The position numbers were made by a program, and so were the translations under genes. From positions 65,266 to 129,265 of the forward strand of contig NIVC01002944.1 of assembly GCA_002269645.1 (NCBI GenBank): a stretch of 64,000 bases of DNA. Reading direction: 5' to 3'. The first letter of the stretch is position 1; the number at the start of each line of letters is the position of its first letter. This DNA is from Macrostomum lignano (lineage: Eukaryota). The notes beneath the pieces were generated by a model. The model was not told where the DNA came from, ran no database searches, and worked only from the letters and a program-made list of their open reading frames with translations. This document shows, one piece after another, positions 37,146 to 64,000 of this stretch.

Positions 37146-39136
37146 TTTGATTCGCTCCTTCCCTGATAGCCTCGGCAGGTGCCGGGCGGGCTCAGAAATT
37201 TGCAGATAATTGCCGAGTAGGAGTGCAGACCCCGCACATCACTGGCCATCTATAATTATGATTATAAATTGAATAGTATTCAGTAGTAGACAACTAGCAC
37301 AAGTCTAACAAATTTGCCTCTACATGTGATGAGTTGCTTTACTTAGATAAGAATATCAAAAGCAGTGGAGGGAAGTCAGGTGAATACTTACTAAAAGGCT
37401 TAAAGTCCTATTCACATATTTTTCTTCAATATAAATTTGTCCACTTTTGAGATAGACAAGGCCAATGAATTGAACTTATATAAGCTAGCTCATATATTGA
37501 CTCCTTAATACTAATTAATATTTTAGCCGATTGATTAGCATGAAATGTATTTCCCAAGATTGTACAAAGACTAAAGTTTTATTATTGTAGACAGAGAATT
37601 ATAATATGGTTCATACACTGTATTGTAAAACCTAAATAGTATATAAAAATTAAGGCCACAATGAAAGTATACAAAATGAGCTTAACTTTATCATCAATCA
37701 AAGCAAAAAGCATGCATCCATTCGAAAACTGCTGCAAGTCTGCTTTGTTAATATTGCATTTAAAAAATAATTTATAATTATACAAGTAGCAATAATTTTG
37801 ATTTTAACTAATTCTATCTCAATTAACTTTGGAAATTTTTTAGAATAACATTTAAAACTAATAGTTTTAATTGATTTGCAGTTTATATGCATAGCAGAAC
37901 TAATAGGAACAGTTTTTTTATACATTCCTAAAAATAAAAATTCTAAATTTTGTTATCTGTCAATTTCTTTAAGAATGCTAGAATGGCTAAGTCCCAAAAA
38001 TTTTACGATTAACATCAATTGTCATTCATTTAAACCGAAAAAATAGGAGTTTATTATTCAGCAATCTAAAAACTAGAGCGCACGATATTCAATTCATAGA
38101 GTCAGACAAATTTCTCCAAAAAATATTGCCTCTAACCGAACCACAATGTAAAACATTCAGATTTCTAGTAAAATTCTGTGAATGAAATACTTTTAAAATA
38201 ATACGCATTTTATAACAAAACGTATATTAAGTCGTCGTAATTTAAAAAATAGGTTTACATTTTTATTGTTTTGTAATTAAATTACTTTATTTAAGTAATT
38301 TTAAAAGCTAAGAGCAAACAAAGCTATTTTTACACCAAGCAAGACAGGCGTATGCAAAAACGATTTCTCCATACGCCTCAGGACTACACTAGACACAAAC
38401 TCACTGACCTAGTGAATAGACTACACTAAGAAGATAAAGCTTATTGGCCTCCATTTTTTTCGTTTTACGCCCTTAGTATTTAATAGTCCCCTAGCATGAC
38501 ACGCCTACGAGTTTACGAAGAATGAATGCTTGTTTTTGGTATACGGATGCCATGAGTTCATGACACTTTAACACACACTTTGACACAATATCCTTTCGGA
38601 AGACAAGAGTTTGTTCTAAAATTCCAAATCGGCACTCTTTTCAATGTGGGATTGCCAGTGAAATATGTGAAAATAATGTAATAGTTATTAAAAATATAAG
38701 CTTTCTGTAAAAGTCATCCAACACGTCCCTGGGTTCCTCCTCCATGACTCATCGAATGCCACTCTCGTTCCTTCTCTATGACTCATCGACCGCCACTTTC
38801 CGTTCCTCCACCCCCCTCATCGACCGCCACTCTCCTTGCCTTCATGCGACTGTCTCTGAGCAGTCTGATGAGAAACTAACAAAAGATAGTGTATGGTAGC
38901 AATACCCCCCTTATCTAGGACAGACCAATCCCAATGAATGCAAATAATAATGCGGAGGCATTTTGTGAAAAGCATATTTTGTGTGCTAATGCATGCAGGT
39001 GAATATTGGGAGACTTTAATTCAACGCAAAACGATGTTACACAAAAGATCAGTCATAAATATATTGTCTGCTTGGACATCTAATTAGAGGTCGACTTGCG
39101 ACCTCAGCAATTTTGATCCAACGTTGAAAAACTTCA

Positions 39137-40029
39137 TCAGGAAGTGACGGCCTCGCTCCACTCCCACAGCAGGTCCTCGTTGGCAAGAAGCGACGTTTCC
39201 GCTGATGTCGGCTTCGACCTGCCGTCATAAAAGTACAGACCGCTTTTGTCTTCATAGGGCGGCACGCCCGCGGCAATGTTAAACATGTGACCGGCGCCTC
39301 TGCGGAGTGCGGTGATCCGCAGCAGCAGCAGAAACCGCTGAAGCAGCAGATAAAGAAGCAGCGCATGCAGCCACGAAAAAATCCGGTTGTTGGGATGAAG
39401 CCAGGATGCAGCGCGTTCACGTACACGCCGGTGCCCTCCAGCATCCTGGCCAGCTTGCGGCAGTGCAGGATGTTCATCGCCTTCGAGTTCTTGTAAGCCT
39501 GGCTGCCGCTGTAAGCCCCCGGTTTCTCCATAAACAGGTCATCAAAGTCCAGCGGCTTGACCCTAAACGTGTAAGTGTGATAATCCGAGCTCACGATGAG
39601 GACCCGGGCGGCTCCGTGGCGGCTCGCAGTGTCCTTCAGAGTCTGGAGCAGCATCTTGGTGAGCAGGAAGTGGCCCAGATGTTTGTCGCGATCGTCATCT
39701 CGTGGCCTTTGGAGTTCAGATTTCGCTGCTGCCTTGAGAACTCCTCAGCGTAGCCGGCGTTGTTGAGCACGTCAGTCGGGAGAACTTGGCGAGGAATTCG
39801 CTGACGAACTTCCTCACGAGTCGTAGTCGCTCAGGTCGAGCTGAAAGTCAAAGAAGTCGAGAGAAAGTCCCGATTAGTTGAGAAGCTGCTCACACTGCTC
39901 ATCTATCGTACGCGCAGCAGCTCATGACACGGAAAGCGCGGTGCTGAGTACTCACCTGCATCGGCACGAAGGAGCCGCTGCTCTTCAGTGAATGGTTTCG
40001 TTCTGCATAGCCGCGACCGCCTGGTTGGC
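39137..40029 (-). CDS. Short-chain dehydrogenase/reductase (RDH11-14-like), 5' end truncated by the gap, several 1-bp deletions
   Basis: LDLSDY, NNAG, HLGHFLLTKMLL, VSS, catalytic YKNSK and VNALHPG motifs; intron 39841-39955. Confidence 0.85.
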
Positions 40030-40391
40030 NNNNNNNNNNNNNNNNNNNNNNNNNNNNNNNNNNNNNNNNNNNNNNNNNNNNNNNNNNNNNNNNNNNNNNN
40101 NNNNNNNNNNNNNNNNNNNNNNNNNNNNNNNNNNNNNNNNNNNNNNNNNNNNNNNNNNNNNNNNNNNNNNNNNNNNNNNNNNNNNNNNNNNNNNNNNNNN
40201 NNNNNNNNNNNNNNNNNNNNNNNNNNNNNNNNNNNNNNNNNNNNNNNNNNNNNNNNNNNNNNNNNNNNNNNNNNNNNNNNNNNNNNNNNNNNNNNNNNNN
40301 NNNNNNNNNNNNNNNNNNNNNNNNNNNNNNNNNNNNNNNNNNNNNNNNNNNNNNNNNNNNNNNNNNNNNNNNNNNNNNNNNNNNNNNNNNN
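40030..40391. other. Assembly gap (362 N)
   Basis: Run of N. Confidence 0.99.
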
Positions 40392-51792
<11,401 letters not shown>

Positions 51793-52039
51793 CAAGCTGT
51801 TGAAACCCGCAGATTTTGAACCCGGGGAATTAGTTTTGCGTGTCTCAGATTCTAAAATCTGAGGTCAAACTCAAACAAAAACTTGTTAATAGTTAGAAGA
51901 GAGTTAAACATAAAATAGAGTACATTCGTGTAAAATTAGGATTTGAAGCAAGCATTGATATTGTTGGCTGGGGTGCTGCGCAGAATGTCAGGCAAACTCT
52001 GGCCTCTACCTTTGCCTCTCCCTGTGTCCCCTGCATCCT

Positions 52040-52906
52040 TTGAAACTTCCATCTTCTTTTCTGTTTCCTATCTTCTCTCTCCTCTCTCTTCTCTGGTCTA
52101 TGGTCTGTTATCTCTCCTTTCTCATCTTTTATCTCTTCTCATTTCTCTCTGCTCTCTACTCTCTCTTCCCTCTCCCTTCTTCTCATTCCTTACTCTACCC
52201 TCTCTCAACACTTCCCTCATCTCTACTCGCTCCTTTTTCCTCTCTTCTCTCTACTCTCTCCTCTCCTCTGTCCACTCTCTCCTCTCATCTCTTCTATCGT
52301 CTCTTCCCTCACCTCCCTTCTCTCTCGTCTTTGCTCCCTTGTCTCTCACTTCTCTTCTTTTATCTTCTCTTTCTCTTATCTTTTCTCATTTCTCTCTGCT
52401 CTCTCTCCTCCCCCTCTCTCTCTCCTCTCATCTCTCTCCTCTCTCCTGTCCTATCTCTCTTCTCTCTAATCTCTCCCCTCTTTTCTCTCCTCTCTCCCCT
52501 GTCCTCTTGATTCTCTCCCTTCCCCTCCTCTCTCCTCACTCACTTCTCATCTCTCCCTTGTCTCCACCTCTCATCTCTCATCTCTTATCTCTCCTCTTTT
52601 CTCTCTACTCTCCCATCTCTCGTCTGTTCACTCTCGTTTCTGCTCTCTCATCTCCCCTCTCTCATCTGTCATATTTACTCTCATATGTTCTCTCACCTCT
52701 CTCCTCTTGTACTCCTCTCTTTCCCCTTTTTTGACTCAGGACTCTCTTTCCTTTCTTCTTTCTTCTCGTCTCTTCTCTTCTCTCTTCTATACTCTCTCCC
52801 TCTCTTGTCTTCTCTCTTCTCTCTCCACTCTCCTCTCTCCTCTCTTATATCGTCTGTTCACTCTCATCTTTGCTCTCTCATTCCCCTCTCTCTTCCTTCA
52901 TATCTC
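52040..52906 (+). repeat. CT-rich polypyrimidine tract, left part
   Basis: Low-complexity C/T sequence. Confidence 0.9.
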
Positions 52907-55900
52907 ACTACTAAGGGATTCCGTAAGTGTTGATTTTGGAGGTGAGGTGGGTGTCAACCCTCCTCGCCTCTCATTGGCTGGCGCCCCGATCACTAGGTGA
53001 TCGATACCCGTATCGATATCGGCGCTCGGCGCGCGCGCGCGCGCCGCAGGCGCCAAGCGCCGCAGGCGCCAAGCGCCGCAGGCGACCCTCCCAGCCGCAG
53101 GCGCACCTACCGATATTAGATCCCAATAAATCAATCAGATCCCAAATCAATCAGATCCCAAATCAATCAGATCCCAAGCGCACCCACCCGAGCCGCAGGC
53201 GCCCATGCAGCAGGCGCCCCTCCCCGCCGCACGCGCCCTCCCCGACATGTATGCCGCAGGCGCCCTCCCCGTCTCAGGCGCCCCTCCCGATATGTATGCG
53301 CACTCTCCCTATATGTACACCGATATGTATGCAGCAGGCGCCCCGAGTGTACACTCCCCCGATATGTGTGTACACCGATATGTAGTCATCGATACGGGCC
53401 TCTTCCCTCTCTCACCTACATCTCAACTAGCGAAATCGAACCCAGGTCGCGCCCATACTAGGACACTACACGGTTGTGGGGTATAGGGAGCGAGAAGTTT
53501 CAACCCTAACGCTGACGCAGCCCTGTACAGTGAGAGTGTACGGGCAGAGAGGGGTGGCGCGGACAGAGAACCAGCCACTAGGTTGTTATACTGTTGAAGC
53601 ATAGGGAGCGAGAAGTTTTAACCCCGATGCTGACGCAGCCCTGTACACTGAGCGTGTACGGGCAGAGGGTGGGTGGAAAGAGATGTGAATAACACAGCCT
53701 GCTGCAGGAGCCGGATAGAGAGGCGCATGCTAGGACAGAGAGGTAGTGTGAGTCACACACACCCCACAGAGAAAGCCATACAGAGGATAGAGAGCTCCCT
53801 CCCCAGTTGCAGGGGACAGAGAGGCAGGCTGGGTATGCAGGGGCATGCGAACCGTCAAGGGGCCACGCGAGGATAGAGTGGAGGAGCAGAGATGTGTTTG
53901 GACAGAGAGCCAGCCACGTGTGCGTAGTGTGAGGGAACAGAAACATATGGAGCAGGAGGGAGATAGGAAGCAAACGCGCAGGGTAAGGGAGCCACACAGG
54001 GCGGTACAGTGAGACACGGGCAGGGGTGGAGCCGTGCGTGGACAGAGCTGAACGGCACGGTCAGCTGCAGGAATAGGATGATAGAGAGGCGCGGAGGGGG
54101 ACAGAGAGCAGTGTGCAGGGGTAGGCAGCCACGCAGGCTGGGGAACAGAGAGGCGCGTGTCAGCCAGTTGCAGCCCGGGACAGAGAAGTATGAAGGGGGG
54201 CCTGGGACAGAGTTCCGAGCAAGGCACAGAGGTAGGGTCCTGTAGCTATGTATAGGCAGGGAGCCACGCGAGGGCAGGACAGGGGAGCAGACATGCAAGT
54301 TGCATGCAAGGCCAGAGAGGTGTGCGCGGAGGGAGACAGAGAGCAGTGTGTAGGGGTAGGTAACAGCAAACTTTAGTAGCGGCGCGTGCGGGGACGGAGA
54401 AACCAGTCAGAGCATACAGAGACGTTACAGAGAGGTACACAAGCAGAGACCAAAGCGAGCAGAGCACATGTGTAGGGACAGAGACGTGAGGGAGAATCGA
54501 CCAAAACACGCTATGTATTTTCAAAAGTTGGTTTTAGTGCAACATGTTTAATAGTGGGTAGTATAATAGTATGTACATAGTAGGTATAATAGTAGTAATA
54601 ATAGTAAGCATATTAGCCCAAAAGGTAGACTAAAACAGGCTAAACTGTGTGTACGCATCCTCATCACCCCACAAGCCCCCTCTCCCGCCAGACTCACTCT
54701 ACCAAACCCTCCTGTATTGCTGCATGAAGGAAAATATAGTGTAAAAATACAGATCTTAACCGTCAGACCGCTGAAATCAGGGCACACTAGAGGGGGTTTC
54801 GGGGTCTGCATGCTCTATGTAAGCTGCTTGAGGAGGTTCCAAGGGCGTTGTGAGGGTTTCCATTATGTTTTGAAAAAAAACTAGGGCTTAAATACAACGT
54901 TTTATTCAAAAGTAGGTTATTTTAATGAAATAGCTGACACAATCATTGTCGAGAGTAGAAATTTTTATAAGAAACCAGGCATTTTAGCAAAAATAAACCT
55001 TCAAACCACATAAAATTGAATAAAAAGCAGACATTTTCAATTATAAACCGCAAGTATTTTAATAGAAAAGTAAGCAAACAAGGCACAAAACCAGCAAATT
55101 TTACCTTTTTATTTTAATGTTACTGATAAGGTAGAGAGTAGAAACTTGTGAGCTGTACGGAGTTAGAAAGTATTAACCATTATGTATCGTATGAATTATT
55201 AGTTCAGTACCAGCCATTGGTCAAGCGAGCATTTATGAAGTTATTACGAGTGATGAAGGGATAGAGAGCTATATACAGGAAGACAGTATCCTTCTAAACC
55301 ACCACGAACAGATTGCTAATAGAGATAAGCTTTGTCTGTGTGCAGTATGAGTAAGCGAAGGCGGGGCAAATACTTTTCCACATGCCGGACAGAACAGTAT
55401 TGTGCTAGGATTTCTCTCGAAATCGCGGTACGTTACTAGTTTTTATCACACCATCCAGATGCGTCAACTAGTCAGCAGTAGTCATTTATATGTTATTAGA
55501 ACTTACAAACCCAGGTCAAGTAAATATTACAAAGAGTATATTACGTACACACGCCAACTCCGAATACCAAGCCATACTAGTCTACTTGCAGTGCTCCTGG
55601 AGGGAAGGGACGGCGGGGTGTACATCCGGCAGGGTGGGCGTCCAGCGAGTGTACATCTGACAGGATGGGTGTTCAGCAAGTGTACATCTGACAGGGTGGG
55701 CGTTCAGCAAGTGTACCTTCAGCGTCGAGTAGGTGTACACCCGTCAGTGGGAACTCAGCCCCTCCCACCAATGTCGTGTGCATGCGGTTAGTCAGTATAG
55801 TGGTGGGGTAGACGGTGCAGGAAGGAAACCCAGATGCTGACGCTGCCCTGTACAGCGAGCAACCAGCCCTCCTGTAGCAGGAGGGGGACAGAGAGTGCGT

Positions 55901-58900
55901 GGAGGCAGTAGGAGATAGAGGACGCTACCCGGCATGTCGCAGCACGCGGCGCGGGACAGAGAGGCAGTGTGTAAGTCACCCCCGCGGAGGGACAGAGAGC
56001 TACCCTGGCAGGAGGCGCGGGACAGAGAGGCGGTGAATCACACCCCACGGAGAGAGCCGTACAACGAGCTTCCCCACCCGAGTCCGGTAAATATTACAGA
56101 GTATTACGTGCACACGCCAGCCCTGAATACCAAGCCATACTAGTCTACCTGCAGTGCTCCCAGAGGGAAGGGATGGTCAGGAGTTACACACCAAGAATGC
56201 ATTCATACAAAGAGTACACAACTCGAGCCAGACACCAAGTCACAGTCTACTTACAGTAGAGATGGTAGATTAATAGCAAGATTATATTACAATTAGACCT
56301 CCCTAGCACATGAGGAGTGAAATTCAATAATAATTGAATTCAATAATAATACAACATTTAGACGTAGTAATTTAATTACAAAATACCACTAACACTGAGC
56401 CAACGAATTGTAGGTTACAAAGGAGTTGTCACTCATATGGAAAGCCAGTATAATGCAGGTGTATATTATTAAAACATAGACAAAAACGATGCAGACGTAT
56501 ATACACACTATTGATTTTGTACATGTACATTTCGGCATATTACCACACATCGCAGGCACATATTATATATCGGGGGATAGGTTAAAATACACACATCGTA
56601 GATGTAGAAGCAGACACAATGCAGGAAAATTATGATACGAGTGTACATATTAGTGCGTAAAAGTATCATATTATGACACCCTGTAGCACATATTGACATA
56701 ATGCAGGGGAAAATATTGACAGAAATAGTACACAATTGTAGAGGTAACAACCCGCCAACTAGTAAGGACATCCAGCACTTGTTCAGGTTTTTATTATTTC
56801 GAGACGAGTGTCATGCCCCCGCAAGAGATCTTATCAGAAATTTGTTGAACTCCACTGCAACTCTCCCCAGAGCCTCCAAATGTGAGTTTTTAACCCAGGG
56901 TCGAGTACAAAGGACCCGCCCACTCTTAACCCCAAGGGGTGATCGTAGCGGAGACCAAGTACAGTGCGGACGGAGAGGGGTAACAGAAAGCGCTGCATCA
57001 GACCGCAGGGCTGCATTCCTCCCCGAGGTAGGCGCGTCAGCTCCCACTCCTCATTTAACCATCAAGTAAACTAAAGAAGTCAAGCAGAAAGCCTTACAAT
57101 CACCCGCAACCAGCACAAGTAAGAGTACTTTCCACTAGAGAGCCATAGTGCAAGATTCGCGAGCCAAGTTGAAGAAGCACACCAAATTACACTAAAGACA
57201 TATGTATTAAAAAGCATACCGGCACCTCTACAAAAACACAGTATGTACCGATTAAAGTTGCTTTTGGTGCAGTGTATTTAATAAAAAGCTGGTACCTAAC
57301 ACAAAAGTAGGCATCAATGCAGTGCACGGGCTAAACTGTATTTACAAACGCAGGGCAACGAACTACACACAATGTAGCGCATAGACATAATTGTACGCAT
57401 AAATGTACGCAATTTCCGGTATATAGGACCAAATGTACACAATGTACACAAACACACACACACACACACACACTCAGGCGTATTCACAGCAAGAGCTTCC
57501 TGCCGATGGCGCCATCGCCTGCGGCGATCGGTGCTGCAGGATGCGCTGCAGGATGCGCCTGAGTGTGTGTGTGTGTGTGTGTGTGTTTGTGTACATTGTG
57601 TACATTTGGTCCTATATACCGGAAATTGCGTACATTTATGCGTACAATTATGTCTATGCGCTACATTGTGTGTAGTTCGTTGCCCTGCGTTTGTAAATAC
57701 AGTTTAGCCCGTGCACTGCATTGATGCCTACTTTTGTGTTAGGTACCTGCTTTTTATTAAATACACTGCACCAAAAGCAACTTTAATCGGTACATACTGT
57801 GTTTTTGTAGAGGTGCCGTATGCTTTTTAATACATATGTCTTTAGTGTAATTTGGTGTGCTTCTTCAACTTGGCTCGCGAATCTTGCACTATGGCTCTCT
57901 AGTGGAAAGTACTCTTACTTGTGCTGGTTGCGGGTGATTGTAAGGCTTTCTGCTTGACTTCTTTAGTTTACTTGATGGTTAAATGAGGAGTGGGAGCTGA
58001 CGCGCCTACCTCGGGGAGGAATGCAGCCCTGCGGTCTGATGCAGCGCTTTCTGTTACCCCTCTCCGTCCGCACTGTACTTGGTCTCCGCTACGATCACCC
58101 CTTGGGGTTAAGAGTGGGCGGGTCCTTTGTACTCGACCCTGGGTTAAAAACTCACATTTGGAGGCTCTGGGAGAGTTGCAGTGGAGTTCAACAAATTTCT
58201 GATAAGATCTCTTGCGGGGGCATGACACTCGTCTCGAAATAATAAAAACCTGAACAAGTGCTGGATGTCCTTACTAGTTGGCGGGTTGTTACCTCTACAA
58301 TTGTGTACTATTTCTGTCAATATTTTCCCCTGCATTATGTCAATATGTGCTACAGGGTGTCATAATATGATACTTTTACGCACTAATATGTACACTCGTA
58401 TCATAATTTTCCTGCATTGTGTCTGCTTCTACATCTACGATGTGTGTATTTTAACCTATCCCCCGATATATAATATGTGCCTGCGATGTGTGGTAATATG
58501 CCGAAATGTACATGTACAAAATCAATAGTGTGTATATACGTCTGCATCGTTTTTGTCTATGTTTTAATAATATACACCTGCATTATACTGGCTTTCCATA
58601 TGAGTGGCAACTCCTTTGTAACCTACAATTCGTTGGCTCAGTGTTAGTGGTATTTTGTAATTAAATTACTACGTCTAAATGTTGTATTATTATTGAATTC
58701 AATTATTATTGAATTTCACTCCTCATGTGCTAGGGAGGTCTAATTGTAATATAATCTTGCTATTAATCTACCATCTCTACTGTAAGTAGACTGTGACTTG
58801 GTGTCTGGCTCGAGTTGTGTACTCTTTGTATGAATGCATTCTTGGTGTGTAACTCCTGACCATCCCTTCCCTCTGGGAGCACTGCAGGTAGACTAGTATG

Positions 58901-61900
58901 GCTTGGTATTCAGGGCTGGCGTGTGCACGTAATACTCTGTAATATTTACCGGACTCGGGTGGGGAAGCTCGTTGTACGGCTCTCTCCGTGGGGTGTGATT
59001 CACCGCCTCTCTGTCCCGCGCCTCCTGCCAGGGCAGCTCTCTGTCCTGCGGGGGTGACTTACACACTGCCTCTCTGTCCCGCGCCGCGTGCTGCGACATG
59101 CCGGGTAGCGTCCTCTATCTCCTACTGCCTCCACGCACTCTCTGTCCCCCTCCTGCTACAGGAGGGCTGGTTGCTCGCTGTACAGGGCAGCGTCAGCATC
59201 TGGGTTTCCTTCCTGCACCGTCTACCCCACCACTATACTGACTAACCGCATGCACACGACATTGGTGGGAGGGGCTGAGTTCCCACTGACGGGTGTACAC
59301 CTACTCGACGCTGAAGGTACACTTGCTGAACGCCCACCCTGTCAGATGTACACTTGCTGAACACCCATCCTGTCAGATGTACACTCGCTGGACGCCCACC
59401 CTGCCGGATGTACACCCCGCCGTCCCTTCCCTCCAGGAGCACTGCAAGTAGACTAGTATGGCTTGGTATTCGGAGTTGGCGTGTGTACGTAATATACTCT
59501 TTGTAATATTTACTTGACCTGGGTTTGTAAGTTCTAATAACATATAAATGACTACTGCTGACTAGTTGACGCATCTGGATGGTGTGATAAAAACTAGTAA
59601 CGTACCGCGATTTCGAGAGAAATCCTAGCACAATACTGTTCTGTCCGGCATGTGGAAAAGTATTTGCCCCGCCTTCGCTTACTCATACTGCACACAGACA
59701 AAGCTTATCTCTATTAGCAATCTGTTCGTGGTGGTTTAGAAGGATACTGTCTTCCTGTATATAGCTCTCTATCCCTTCATCACTCGTAATAACTTCATAA
59801 ATGCTCGCTTGACCAATGGCTGGTACTGAACTAATAATTCATACGATACATAATGGTTAATACTTTCTAACTCCGTACAGCTCACAAGTTTCTACTCTCT
59901 ACCTTATCAGTAACATTAAAATAAAAAGGTAAAATTTGCTGGTTTTGTGCCTTGTTTGCTTACTTTTCTATTAAAATACTTGCGGTTTATAATTGAAAAT
60001 GTCTGCTTTTTATTCAATTTTATGTGGTTTGAAGGTTTATTTTTGCTAAAATGCCTGGTTTCTTATAAAAATTTCTACTCTCGACAATGATTGTGTCAGC
60101 TATTTCATTAAAATAACCTACTTTTGAATAAAACGTTGTATTTAAGCCCTAGTTTTTTTCAAAACATAATGGAAACCCTCACAACGCCCTTGGAACCTCC
60201 TCAAGCAGCTTACATAGAGCATGCAGACCCCGAAACCCCCTCTAGTGTGCCCTGATTTCAGCGGTCTGACGGTTAAGATCTGTATTTTTACACTATATTT
60301 TCCTTCATGCAGCAATACAGGAGGGTTTGGTAGAGTGAGTCTGGCGGGAGAGGGGGCTTGTGGGGTGATGAGGATGCGTACACACAGTTTAGCCTGTTTT
60401 AGTCTACCTTTTGGGCTAATATGCTTACTATTATTACTACTATTATACCTACTATGTACATACTATTATACTACCCACTATTAAACATGTTGCACTAAAA
60501 CCAACTTTTGAAAATACATAGCGTGTTTTGGTCGATTCTCCCTCACGTCTCTGTCCCTACACATGTGCTCTGCTCGCTTTGGTCTCTGCTTGTGTACCTC
60601 TCTGTAACGTCTCTGTATGCTCTGACTGGTTTCTCCGTCCCCGCACGCGCCGCTACTAAAGTTTGCTGTTACCTACCCCTACACACTGCTCTCTGTCTCC
60701 CTCCGCGCACACCTCTCTGGCCTTGCATGCAACTTGCATGTCTGCTCCCCTGTCCTGCCCTCGCGTGGCTCCCTGCCTATACATAGCTACAGGACCCTAC
60801 CTCTGTGCCTTGCTCGGAACTCTGTCCCAGGCCCCCCTTCATACTTCTCTGTCCCGGGCTGCAACTGGCTGACACGCGCCTCTCTGTTCCCCAGCCTGCG
60901 TGGCTGCCTACCCCTGCACACTGCTCTCTGTCCCCCTCCGCGCCTCTCTATCATCCTATTCCTGCAGCTGACCGTGCCGTTCAGCTCTGTCCACGCACGG
61001 CTCCACCCCTGCCCGTGTCTCACTGTACCGCCCTGTGTGGCTCCCTTACCCTGCGCGTTTGCTTCCTATCTCCCTCCTGCTCCATATGTTTCTGTTCCCT
61101 CACACTACGCACACGTGGCTGGCTCTCTGTCCAAACACATCTCTGCTCCTCCACTCTATCCTCGCGTGGCCCCTTGACGGTTCGCATGCCCCTGCATACC
61201 CAGCCTGCCTCTCTGTCCCCTGCAACTGGGGAGGGAGCTCTCTATCCTCTGTATGGCTTTCTCTGTGGGGTGTGTGTGTGACTCACACTACCTCTCTGTC
61301 CTAGCATGCGCCTCTCTATCCGGCTCCTGCAGCAGGCTGTGTTATTCACATCTCTTTCCACCCACCCTCTGCCCGTACACGCTCAGTGTACAGGGCTGCG
61401 TCAGCATCGGGGTTAAAACTTCTCGCTCCCTATGCTTCAACAGTATAACAACCTAGTGGCTGGTTCTCTGTCCGCGCCACCCCTCTCTGCCCGTACACTC
61501 TCACTGTACAGGGCTGCGTCAGCGTTAGGGTTGAAACTTCTCGCTCCCTATACCCCACAACCGTGTAGTGTCCTAGTATGGGCGCGACCTGGGTTCGATT
61601 TCGCTAGTTGAGATGTAGGTGAGAGAGGGAAGAGGCCCGTATCGATGACTACATATCGGTGTACACACATATCGGGGGAGTGTACACTCGGGGCGCCTGC
61701 TGCATACATATCGGTGTACATATAGGGAGAGTGCGCATACATATCGGGAGGGGCGCCTGAGACGGGGAGGGCGCCTGCGGCATACATGTCGGGGGAGGGC
61801 GCGTGCGGCGGGGAGGGGCGCCTGCTGCATGGGCGCCTGCGGCTCGGGTGGGTGCGCTTGGGATCTGATTGATTTGGGATCTGATTGATTTGGGATCTGA

Positions 61901-62113
61901 TTGATTTATTGGGATCTAATATCGGTAGGTGCGCCTGCGGCTGGGGAGGGTCGCCTGCGGCGCTTGGCGCCTGCGGCGCGCGCGCGCGCGCCGAGCGCCG
62001 ATATCGATACGGGTATCGATCACCTAGTGATCGGGGCGCCAGCCAATGAGAGGCGAGGAGGGTTGACACCCACCTCACCTCCAAAATCAACACTTACGGA
62101 ATCCCTTAGTAGT
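52907..62113. mobile_element. Foldback-type palindromic element: arms 52907-57480 and 57556-62113, 75-bp spacer, TSD TATCTC
   Basis: The arms are near-exact reverse complements. TATCTC lies at 52901-52906 and 62114-62119. Both flanks are halves of one CT-rich tract. Confidence 0.8.
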
Positions 62114-62625
62114 TATCTCATCTCTACTCTCTCATCTTTCCTTTCATCTCTCTCATCTCTACAATCTCATCTCTTTCCTCTCTCCTCCTCTTCCCTTTAC
62201 TCTATCATCTCTCCTTTTTCCTCTCTTCTTCTCAACTCTCTCTCTAATCTCTTATCTCCTCTCTTCTCACTCCTCTCTCTCCCTCTCTCCCCCTCTTATC
62301 TCCTCTCTTCTCTATCCTTTCTAATCTCTTCTCTCGATCCTCTCTCATCTGCCTCTCTGTTCTCTCAACTCTTATCTCTTCTCACTCTTCTATACTCTCC
62401 TCTCTCATCGATCATCTGTCTCATCTCTCCCCTCTTCTCTCTCCATCTTCTCACCTCTACTATTTCCTCTCACTTCTCTCTCCCCTCCTTTCGCTTCTTC
62501 GTCCCATATTCTCTGCTCTCTCCTCAACCCCCTCGTCTCTGCTGTTATCTTCTATCTTTCTCTTATCCCCCTCTCGCCCCTCCTCCCTTTCTAATAGTCT
62601 ATTCCTTTTTCTTTTCACTCTCATC
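62114..62625 (+). repeat. CT-rich polypyrimidine tract, right part (same strand as left part)
   Basis: Low-complexity C/T sequence, not inverted relative to the left part. Confidence 0.9.
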
Positions 62626-63830
62626 TGGCCCGCAGCCATGAGTTGGATTCTTTATCTGGCCTTTGAGATAAAAATCTGCCGATCCCTGCTTCGAAAGCTA
62701 GTTTGTGGGATGTAGTACTATCACGGTTGTTATCATTTCTCATGCTTTAATCACGTCATCTTTCTGACCAATTAGCAGCCCTGAGAGGAATTTGTGTATC
62801 TCCATTCTCCTCCACCACCACAGTCTGCAGCAGTCTAACAACCAAGGACATACGCATTTCTTAGGAGGCCATTTAAATTTTAAAGTACCTTATGCGAATC
62901 TTAATGTTAAAATTTTCATGGTGTAACTAATTTAGTAGGATTGCATGTAATCGGTTATTCATTAATTTTTCGCTATTTTTACAAACCATGCCGCATCGCC
63001 TTGTTGATTTGCCAATTGCCATCCATCCACTGATAAACTGCTGCACGCTTGTCTAATGTCTATACAGAGGACAGTGGTTTGAATCTCTCACTAAACTGTC
63101 ATGACCAAACGTAGCCTCTCCACACGCGGGGGGTGCGGAGAAGGCTATTAAAAAGTTATTCCAAAACACTGTACATTCGCTATGTACACTGAGCCCTATA
63201 GCCTGACCCTTTGTCTGGGCTGGGGGATTGAGTGAGTGAGCGGCACAAACAACAGAAAAAGCAGACAAATTTCACATGCTTACAGTTTCTGTTCTGATTG
63301 AGTTACAGAGTTGAGACTTTATATTTAGACAGTGAATGAGTCAAAGAAGAATTGAGTCAAGTTTCAAGTCAATGGCTTCACGTAGAGCAAACCTATGGCA
63401 GCCGAAAGTTAAGTCAATTTTTATAACCCCCTTTACACACCAGGCCCAGTTCGGGAAAGAGAGGCAGGCGGAGGTTGGGGTGGCTGCCTCGCTGACAAAA
63501 AACAGCCTAACTTTAAAAGTGCACGATTGTGTCGAAATAGTTCAAGATTAATTGTGTCAAATTTGAAGAGGATTGGTAGCAGTGGAGCGGCGCTATGGAG
63601 GATTTAGTAAAAAAATCGCGCATTTTGGGCAGTTTTTTTGCACTTTTAAGTAGGAAGACTCAAATTTAGGAAATTTTAAGGTAGCCTATGACACTTTCTG
63701 TAGTGAATTTAGGGTGGGTGCAAAATTTGGTGTAATTTGGTTGAGCGGTTTGGTAGTCCATAGCGAAGTAATTTGTACACAGACACACATACACACAGAC
63801 AGAGTTTTGATTTTTATATGTAGAGATAGA

Positions 63831-64000
63831 CGAGTTAATCTTGAGATTTGGGAGTTAATCTCAGGATTTGGGAGTTAGTCTTGGGATTCTGGAGTTAATC
63901 TTGAGATTTAGAAGTTAATCTCGGGATTTGTGAGTTAATCTCGGGATTTGGGAGTTAATCTTGAGATTTGGGATTTAATTTTGGTAGTCCAGAGTTAATC
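63831..64000. repeat. Resumption of the LRRK intron-13 20-bp minisatellite after the Helitron
   Basis: GAGTTAATCTCGGGATTTGG repeats, same orientation as 51650-51792. Confidence 0.92.

Follow-up and report, generated by a model that had tools for sequence, protein, structure and literature searches.

A gene-less 9.2-kb palindrome of Macrostomum lignano belongs to a multicopy family that shares its ends with polymerase-encoding Polinton-like elements

How does a DNA element with no genes come to be copied and inserted, and how do its two arms stay near-exact mirror images of each other? The question is raised by a 9,207-bp palindrome at positions 52907-62113 of the stretch analysed here, a 64,000-nucleotide window of Macrostomum lignano contig NIVC01002944.1. 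The palindrome has ACTACTAAGGG as its 5' end and CCCTTAGTAGT as its 3' end, and TATCTC borders it left and right within CT-rich flanks. The original prediction, made from the letters alone, had proposed a non-autonomous and possibly copy-back derivative of a Polinton-like element, and the arm lengths, 75-bp spacer, ACTACT ends and TATCTC duplication that it gave were all reproduced (Table 1). We find that the palindrome is one member of a young multicopy family, with dozens of gene-less copies in a Macrostomum lignano-like genome, and that its ends recur on elements encoding a protein-primed DNA polymerase. It is probably a gene-less satellite, copied by the polymerase of the matching element and inserted in trans by the integrase of a resident Polinton, a putative helper.

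In the 764-Mb genome, a 32-bp box near the end of the arm finds 212 exact matches, against none for the reversed control. Elements of this family (family 1) were drawn from 100 listed of the 212 matches, and those of the sister family described below from 100 of 126. As the original prediction had expected of other genomic copies, the duplication is constant: an exact 6-bp one of its own borders each of 40 of the 41 family-1 elements seen at both ends (35/36, the window copy and 4/4 split loci). The one that departs, L015, is the L011 locus assembled a second time, with errors at the left end. The 40 duplications comprise 38 different 6-mers with a symmetric N-A-Y-R-T-N bias, which is what a symmetric integrase would give. 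With polarity fixed by the duplications, the ends read 5'-ACTACT//AGTAGT-3', not the canonical 5'-(AGT)2//(ACT)2-3' or 5'-(AG)3//(CT)3-3'. Two classes carry them, gene-less palindromes (class B) and polymerase elements (class A). Class B copies are 7.5-9.4 kb long and form two subfamilies whose common blocks are 95-97% identical; the spacer of about 75 bp is the same in 13 of 14, the remaining one having a central deletion, and class B therefore appears to stem from a single founder. The spacer with 11 bp of each arm (57470-57566) has a predicted fold at z = -5.3, and the spacer by itself a predicted fold of -19.3 kcal/mol, a value without a shuffle control. Across family 1, 32 of 37 listed end pairs span 8.0-10.6 kb, with a median of 9.3 kb.

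Arms that are more than 99% identical raise the concern of a long-read fold-back or assembly artefact. The two arms differ by four substitutions (55989/59047, 56002/59034, 56429/58607 and 57290/57748), one 16-bp unit and several 1-3-bp indels. The earlier count of at least two substitutions thus holds, but their use as proof against two reads of one strand does not: G000 C3234, a second assembled copy of the same insertion with the same flanks, lacks three of the four and keeps only 57290/57748, so that the arm differences are weak evidence on this point. Short-read contigs cover the arm in 4/4 runs from four studies, in a comparison that left out 57440-57620 and with it the spacer. Against an artefact, each locus has distinct flanks and its own exact duplication, the fold point is one identical 75-bp sequence in nearly every copy, and asymmetric central deletions and nested insertions could not arise from fold-back reads. 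Because of the many independent insertion sites with their own duplications, and because the arm occurs in short-read contigs, we regard the palindrome as real and an artefact as extremely improbable.

The palindrome itself shows no coding signal. Its longest stop-to-stop frame, at 183 amino acids, sits at the shuffled mean of 185.5, none of its 41 frames of at least 55 amino acids matches Pfam at E<=0.01, and Rfam gives no match. These results uphold the earlier view that it holds no credible open reading frame, and a coding or structured-RNA role of the arm was rejected on them.

The polymerase lies in class A, which comprises 19 loci of 8.8-10.5 kb (about 9.5 kb) with terminal repeats of about 0.9-1.2 kb and the same ACTACTA terminus and 32-bp box. 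Its product, a protein-primed family B polymerase, matches PF03175 above cut-off; nine of ten tested motifs are present in 18-19 of the 19 copies. Of 187 variant sites, 130 lie at third codon positions (131 synonymous versus 56 non-synonymous), and by this measure the polymerase is under purifying selection. The gene contains introns, with GT-AG borders at the exon ends. The protein is up to 98-99% identical to UniRef proteins named Macrostomum lignano and 28-29% identical to PF03175 proteins of fish and other metazoans; no relatives were found in viral contigs or PDB sequences. From motifs rather than a fold, we take its N-terminal Cys/His motifs to be a vOTU domain and an insert to be VSR-like. 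Both labels also lean on passages of bioRxiv 10.1101/2024.03.18.585575 and bioRxiv 10.1101/2023.08.22.554363. A second class A frame has a predicted PC4 fold (a score of 73.6 in the predicted local distance difference test), with human PC4 as its best PDB match (E 4.6e-3, target template-modelling score 0.79) and the MOSUB protein of a lancelet adintovirus as its best viral fold match (E 2.4e-4). A third frame is acidic and had no match in an atlas search.

With ends common to protein-primed polymerase elements and the 6-bp duplication, the proposed assignment to a non-autonomous Polinton/Maverick-type element stands. The original prediction had suggested a search for longer elements with the same termini that carry a protein-primed polymerase, an integrase, an ATPase or capsid genes; the polymerase is there, but the elements reach only about 9.5 kb and no integrase, ATPase or capsid was detected. 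Queries with eight resident proteins found integrase, ATPase, protease or capsid similarity in none of 78 ACT-ended loci, except in one nested AGT-ended Polinton. Three resident integrases likewise revealed no integrase in these loci beyond that nested element, and the class A frames were Pfam-negative in this respect, within the limit that a very divergent or finely spliced integrase could escape such searches. A genome search with PF04665 gave no match with 150 of 375 candidates scored; since ATPase frames are present, negative family searches are weak here.

Class A aligns with no more than the first ~330 bp of the palindrome arm, and the remaining ~4.2 kb have no parent among the examined loci; the earlier picture of an element made almost entirely of terminal inverted repeat thus does not hold with respect to the repeat of this partner. 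Within the shared part, nucleotides 8-28 are hypervariable beside a nearly invariant box, with 43 haplotypes among 58 elements, and five identical haplotypes occur in both classes. One 8,699-bp element, L038 (G000 C428:214927-223625), joins the 3' half of the polymerase gene to one palindrome arm, has its own 6-bp duplication and carries a different variable block at each end. The best reading of the common haplotypes and this chimera is that both classes replicate in one pool. A 14-mer at nucleotides 18-31 of the window element also occupies the corresponding position in some sister-family ends, which have no DNA similarity apart from this.

Several family-1 loci depart from the two classes. 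L041 (G000 C558:43471-53355) is 9,885 bp long, with family ends and a 6-bp duplication around a tandem dimer of a Gypsy-type long terminal repeat retrotransposon; with such a core it was rejected as a second coding segment. L084, L086 and L088 were rejected as elements, all being one end fragment of about 140 bp within another repeat. Short same-ended derivatives occur at L083 (G000 C168), L034 (C190) and L093 (C670), with lengths of 1.1 and 3.2 kb and 6-bp duplications, and an end pair of about 460 bp. Right ends are repeated head-to-tail at G000 C362:496,180-525,280 (three, at 9.86-kb spacing), and L024, L099 and L100 are duplicated right ends on C201, C261 and C843; tandem integration or assembly duplication would account for all of these.

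The arms also bear on how the palindromes are maintained. Within one copy they diverge by 0-2.0 substitutions/kb in 13 of 14 copies, and the left arm is nearest to its own right arm, over any other copy, in 12; the exceptions are the window palindrome and L011, two nearly identical young copies. Distances between subfamilies in the arm-divergence table are inflated by misaligned blocks. Seven of 11 aligned copies have indels of at least 20 bp relative to the window arm, and in six of these seven both arms show them as mirror images, with a few one-sided extra indels near the ends or centre. As these large indels are symmetric, the arms have likely been re-copied from one another; read polishing could equalise single letters, but not mirrored indels of this size. 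In the sister family, five of six copies show 0-0.5/kb within against 8.5-54/kb between copies. The arms thus behave as if one templates the other, in keeping with the original prediction.

The pairing of polymerase elements with gene-less palindromes recurs. A second polymerase family, whose polymerase is 67% identical over the query to that of family 1, and a third have ACTACG/ACTACT ends and 6-bp duplications; they measure about 9.5-10.3 kb, and further Polinton core genes were seen in neither. The end box of the sister family has 126 matches. Eight of its end pairs, 9-10 kb apart and chosen for having no polymerase match, all carry a 6-bp duplication, and seven of them form one gene-less palindrome family of 9.1-9.9 kb with a different spacer of about 77 bp. 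These sister arms have no similarity to the window arm. Their terminal ~390 bp align with their own partner, and a further 950 bp match, at 76% identity, the unique region that adjoins the terminal repeat of the second family, the layout expected from a copy-back event. Copy-back origin is thus better supported, as far as sequence comparison goes, for the sister palindromes than for that of the window. The eighth pair, L132 (G000 C2132), is also a palindrome; each of its arms has a dUTPase frame, and a P-like transposon is nested in it. It was rejected as an integrase segment, since its content proved to be the P-like transposase and the dUTPase frames. By coordinates only, dUTPase matches also lie near sister-family ends on polymerase-bearing contigs. 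L132 and L130 (G000 C1091) have short or deleted arms and total about 9.5 kb only with their nested P-like (L132) or mariner (L130) transposon; both were picked by size, so their length match is merely suggestive.

Such pairing could also mean that a multipartite Polinton-like system needs the palindrome as its second segment, for instance a structural or RNA partner, that is co-selected and no parasite. Each of two polymerase families has kept a palindrome of matching size whose spacer of about 75 nucleotides is structured, copy numbers are similar (about 55 near-identical polymerase matches versus 119 arm candidates, two per element), and the family-1 length mode holds regardless of core. 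We nevertheless consider this reading quite unlikely: the palindrome has no coding or Rfam signal, the arms of the two families have no common sequence, arms tolerate large indels and foreign transposons, and parasites of the defective-interfering type would produce the same pairing.

Giant inverted repeats without genes typify foldback elements, and the window contains another, unrelated giant palindrome; both points would fit a foldback cut-and-paste transposon moved by a DDE transposase, with only an incidental likeness to Polintons. This is very improbable, given that the ends are identical to, and exchanged with, those of polymerase-encoding elements, that cut-and-paste leaves the mirrored indels unexplained, and that the transposases in L132 and L130 are single nested insertions. 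No transposase forms a regular core among the fetched elements, and the duplication is always 6 bp. Mutator elements duplicate 8-11 bp and CACTA elements 2-3 bp; with 6 bp throughout and no cognate transposase element among those fetched, the earlier suggestion that the termini might belong to a foldback of either kind is not borne out. FB-type transposons usually have arms of tandem repeats, a cut-and-paste transposase and other duplication lengths. The palindrome resembles them in its long inverted arms and little or no coding capacity, but the window arm is mostly non-repetitive and its ends are common with a polymerase element. Foldback elements are mentioned in PMC6431247. Nor need the ACT terminus mark a foldback family foreign to Polintons, as the original prediction had allowed: a passage of PMC8097293 reports a fish Maverick with 5'-(AC)3A//T(GT)3-3' ends, and ACT polarity is therefore no bar to Polinton kinship.

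Full-size Polintons are resident in the same genome. We found 73 capsid matches (126 of 195 candidates scored) and 143 integrase matches among 143 scored of 1,509 candidates, a 16.1-kb canonical Polinton with integrase, polymerase, protease, ATPase, capsid and 6-bp duplication, and a 12.1-kb AGT-ended element with a 6-bp duplication. At least four AGT-ended, integrase-bearing Polinton-like families are present: L115/L067/L068 (C67), L121-L124 (C77, C434), L125/L069/L070 (C1316) and L057/L058 (C106). They nest in one another and in ACT-ended elements; one, of 18.2 kb, has a primase-helicase and terminal hairpins of about 100 nucleotides, and another has terminal hairpins of about 290 bp. Among the listed matches, and by inspection of coordinates, the only integrase within 20 kb of an ACT end is a nested fragment on C271, and it was rejected as a gene of the ACT-ended element. 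The integrase in a 21-kb copy on C106 was likewise rejected as a resident gene, since the AGT-ended element that holds it is nested there and has a duplication of its own.

As a rule integrases require cognate ends, which favours an unsampled or recently lost ACT-ended full Polinton with integrase and capsid, from which the polymerase elements and palindromes would be deletion and copy-back derivatives. More than half of the family-1 box matches lie outside the listed ones, and a fragmented polymerase of 35-38% identity sits on C234 near capsid and integrase genes. Set against these points are the lack of core-gene similarity in the 78 ACT-ended loci outside the one nested Polinton, the absence of any polymerase match between 67% and about 43% identity outside ACT-ended families (144 of 152 candidates scored), and the likeness of the three polymerase-only families in size, exon layout and end type, which bespeaks an old lineage and not a fresh deletion. 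We consider such a parent unlikely.

The satellite reading can be set out as a cycle. The class A polymerase would prime at the ACTACT end and displace one strand, which would fold into a hairpin of about 4.6 kb with a 75-nucleotide loop. At each round one arm would be copied or repaired against the other, keeping arms alike while copies drift apart, and read-through of the loop would restore the 9.2-kb palindrome as a duplex, both of its ends correct. Insertion with a 6-bp stagger would then fall to a retroviral-type Polinton integrase supplied in trans. The single founder would likely have come from one end of a polymerase element through copy-back, growing afterwards by internal duplication, and the length of about 9.3 kb is likely kept by a constraint such as packaging.

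Several observations weigh against this reading. All four integrase-bearing families with examined ends start with AGT, the opposite polarity, and no helper integrase tied to ACT ends was seen among the examined elements. An ACT-ended, integrase-bearing parent may exist among the 112 of 212 family-1 and 26 of 126 sister-family box matches outside those listed. The ~4.2 kb of window arm that have no parent in the examined loci make its copy-back origin indirect. The window arms are 0.96/kb apart but only 0.72/kb from the nearest other copy, and one copy in each family has unlike arms, L043 (13.8/kb), which is a recombinant of two arm types, and L131 (16.4/kb). Read polishing can equalise the arms of one locus, and the two assemblies of the window locus differ in just that way. 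The size mode is weaker in families 2 and 3 (13 of 29 listed end pairs at 8.0-10.6 kb, median 9.5 kb), and long-read assembly may show too few of the longer palindromes. Among these integrated copies, neither an extrachromosomal form nor a protein-blocked end nor a particle was observed, contigs being unable to show molecule ends.

A broader version of the satellite reading is possible, though we hold it only tentatively. An old nuclear lineage of polymerase-only Polintons of about 9.5 kb would have produced and retained, independently in each of its families, a size-matched hairpin partner, with full-size Polintons integrating and packaging both. In an animal germline, the whole would form a three-level virus-satellite-subsatellite or split-genome system, in which the hypervariable block might record competition for replication and integration proteins.

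The nearest known systems share parts of this arrangement. The palindrome has the 6-bp duplication, terminal inverted repeats and reiterated 6-bp end motif of Polintons, and its partner encodes a protein-primed polymerase and a PC4/MoSub-like protein. It differs in its 5'-(ACT)2//(AGT)2-3' ends, the reverse of the common order, and in being a gene-less 9.2 kb with 4.6-kb arms; the partner has no detectable integrase, ATPase, protease or capsid and possesses spliceosomal-type introns. Hence the palindrome is not an autonomous Polinton: it has the 6-bp duplication and no polymerase, integrase, capsid or canonical ends, the polymerase occurring, among elements with these ends, only in the partner, and capsid, ATPase and protease in separate families that the genome also holds. 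The 2006 Polinton paper in the Proceedings of the National Academy of Sciences (PNAS) and Repbase reportedly describe elements that have Polinton ends but no genes and were moved in trans. In copy-back or snap-back defective genomes and clothes-pin replicons, one end is duplicated inverted around a small loop, and the gene-less product needs its parent's polymerase. The palindrome resembles this scheme in being gene-less and mirrored around a small loop, and would share the duplicated end and the need for a parent's polymerase; it differs in being inherited and integrated as a genomic family, in having a single conserved spacer and in keeping the length of its presumed parent. According to passages of PMC8097293, Mavericks span 12.7-24.6 kb with terminal repeats of 46-1,447 bp, and their particles have not been observed so far; intact vertebrate Mavericks are intronless in the same passages and in those of bioRxiv 10.1101/2023.08.22.554363. 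For the polymerase-only partner, the nearest model is given by linear plasmids and transpovirons, which passages of bioRxiv 10.1101/2024.03.18.585575 describe as Polinton derivatives that have no capsid and retain the protein-primed replication protein; transpovirons rely on a helper virus. Those are cytoplasmic or mitochondrial, or parasites of giant viruses, as far as these passages go; the present elements sit in the nuclear genome of an animal, where they are integrated with 6-bp duplications and have introns and gene-less palindromic partners. Passages of PMC6431247 and PMC11296320 contain no closer system. The literature searched, which did not extend to the 2006 PNAS paper, a 2015 review, Repbase or supplements, contained no palindromic or polymerase-only Polinton elements and no Macrostomum Polintons; neither the polymerase-only partners nor the match in size nor the recurrence of the pairing appears in it, and an earlier description may exist.

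If the satellite reading holds, mirror-image arms amid diverging copies would be a genomic record of a fold-back step in Polinton replication that has so far been largely inferred, and the tight size of about 9.3 kb across unrelated cores would point indirectly to a packaging-type limit. In the polymerase-only partners, linear plasmids would have a counterpart that is nuclear and integrates, and the replication and integration modules of Polintons would be separable between elements in animals. Young, near-identical copies in a laboratory-model host make extrachromosomal forms and insertion polymorphism directly accessible.

Table 1. Positions of the palindrome's features in the window
Feature	Position	Strand	Basis
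Left target-site duplication TATCTC	52901..52906	+	Own exact 6-bp duplication in 40/41 two-ended relatives
Left arm, 4,574 bp, non-coding	52907..57480	+	Arm comparison; frame, Pfam and Rfam nulls
Terminal ACTACTA, putative protein-priming and integrase end	52907..52913	+	Entropy 0 at nucleotides 1-7, n=58 elements (invariance of 1-6 built in, as the 58 ends were chosen by ACTACT)
Only arm part aligning at length with the polymerase-element terminal repeat	52907..53238	+	79% over 351 columns
Hypervariable mosaic subterminal block, nucleotides 8-28, common to palindromes and polymerase elements	52914..52934	+	43 haplotypes in 58 elements
Conserved 32-bp subterminal box, also in polymerase elements	52946..52977	+	212 exact genomic matches, 0 for reversed control
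16-bp tandem repeat, one unit fewer in right arm	53041..53084	+	Arm comparison
Central spacer, 75 bp, GC-rich, predicted hairpin extension, (CA)n/(TG)n on either side	57481..57555	.	Same in 13/14 palindromes
Right arm, 4,558 bp, reverse complement of left, with the same terminal motif, variable block and box	57556..62113	-	Arm comparison
Right target-site duplication TATCTC	62114..62119	+	Matches left copy

CT-rich tracts were seen by eye at three of about 41 insertions (window, L022 and L026), whose flanks showed no similarity to one another. When the window flanks were compared with four other loci, no empty allele of the insertion came to light; no genome-wide search was made. The second, unrelated giant palindrome of the window lies at about 25,050-51,790 and 63,832-64,000, with arms of more than 13 kb, many minisatellite arrays and a centre (about 38,100-40,400) that holds a run of N and a fragment resembling a short-chain dehydrogenase. 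The right arm of this palindrome is split by a CT-tract insertion of about 2.8 kb (51,792-63,831 minus the 9.2-kb element), which contains the 9.2-kb element, and carries on in G000 C3234.

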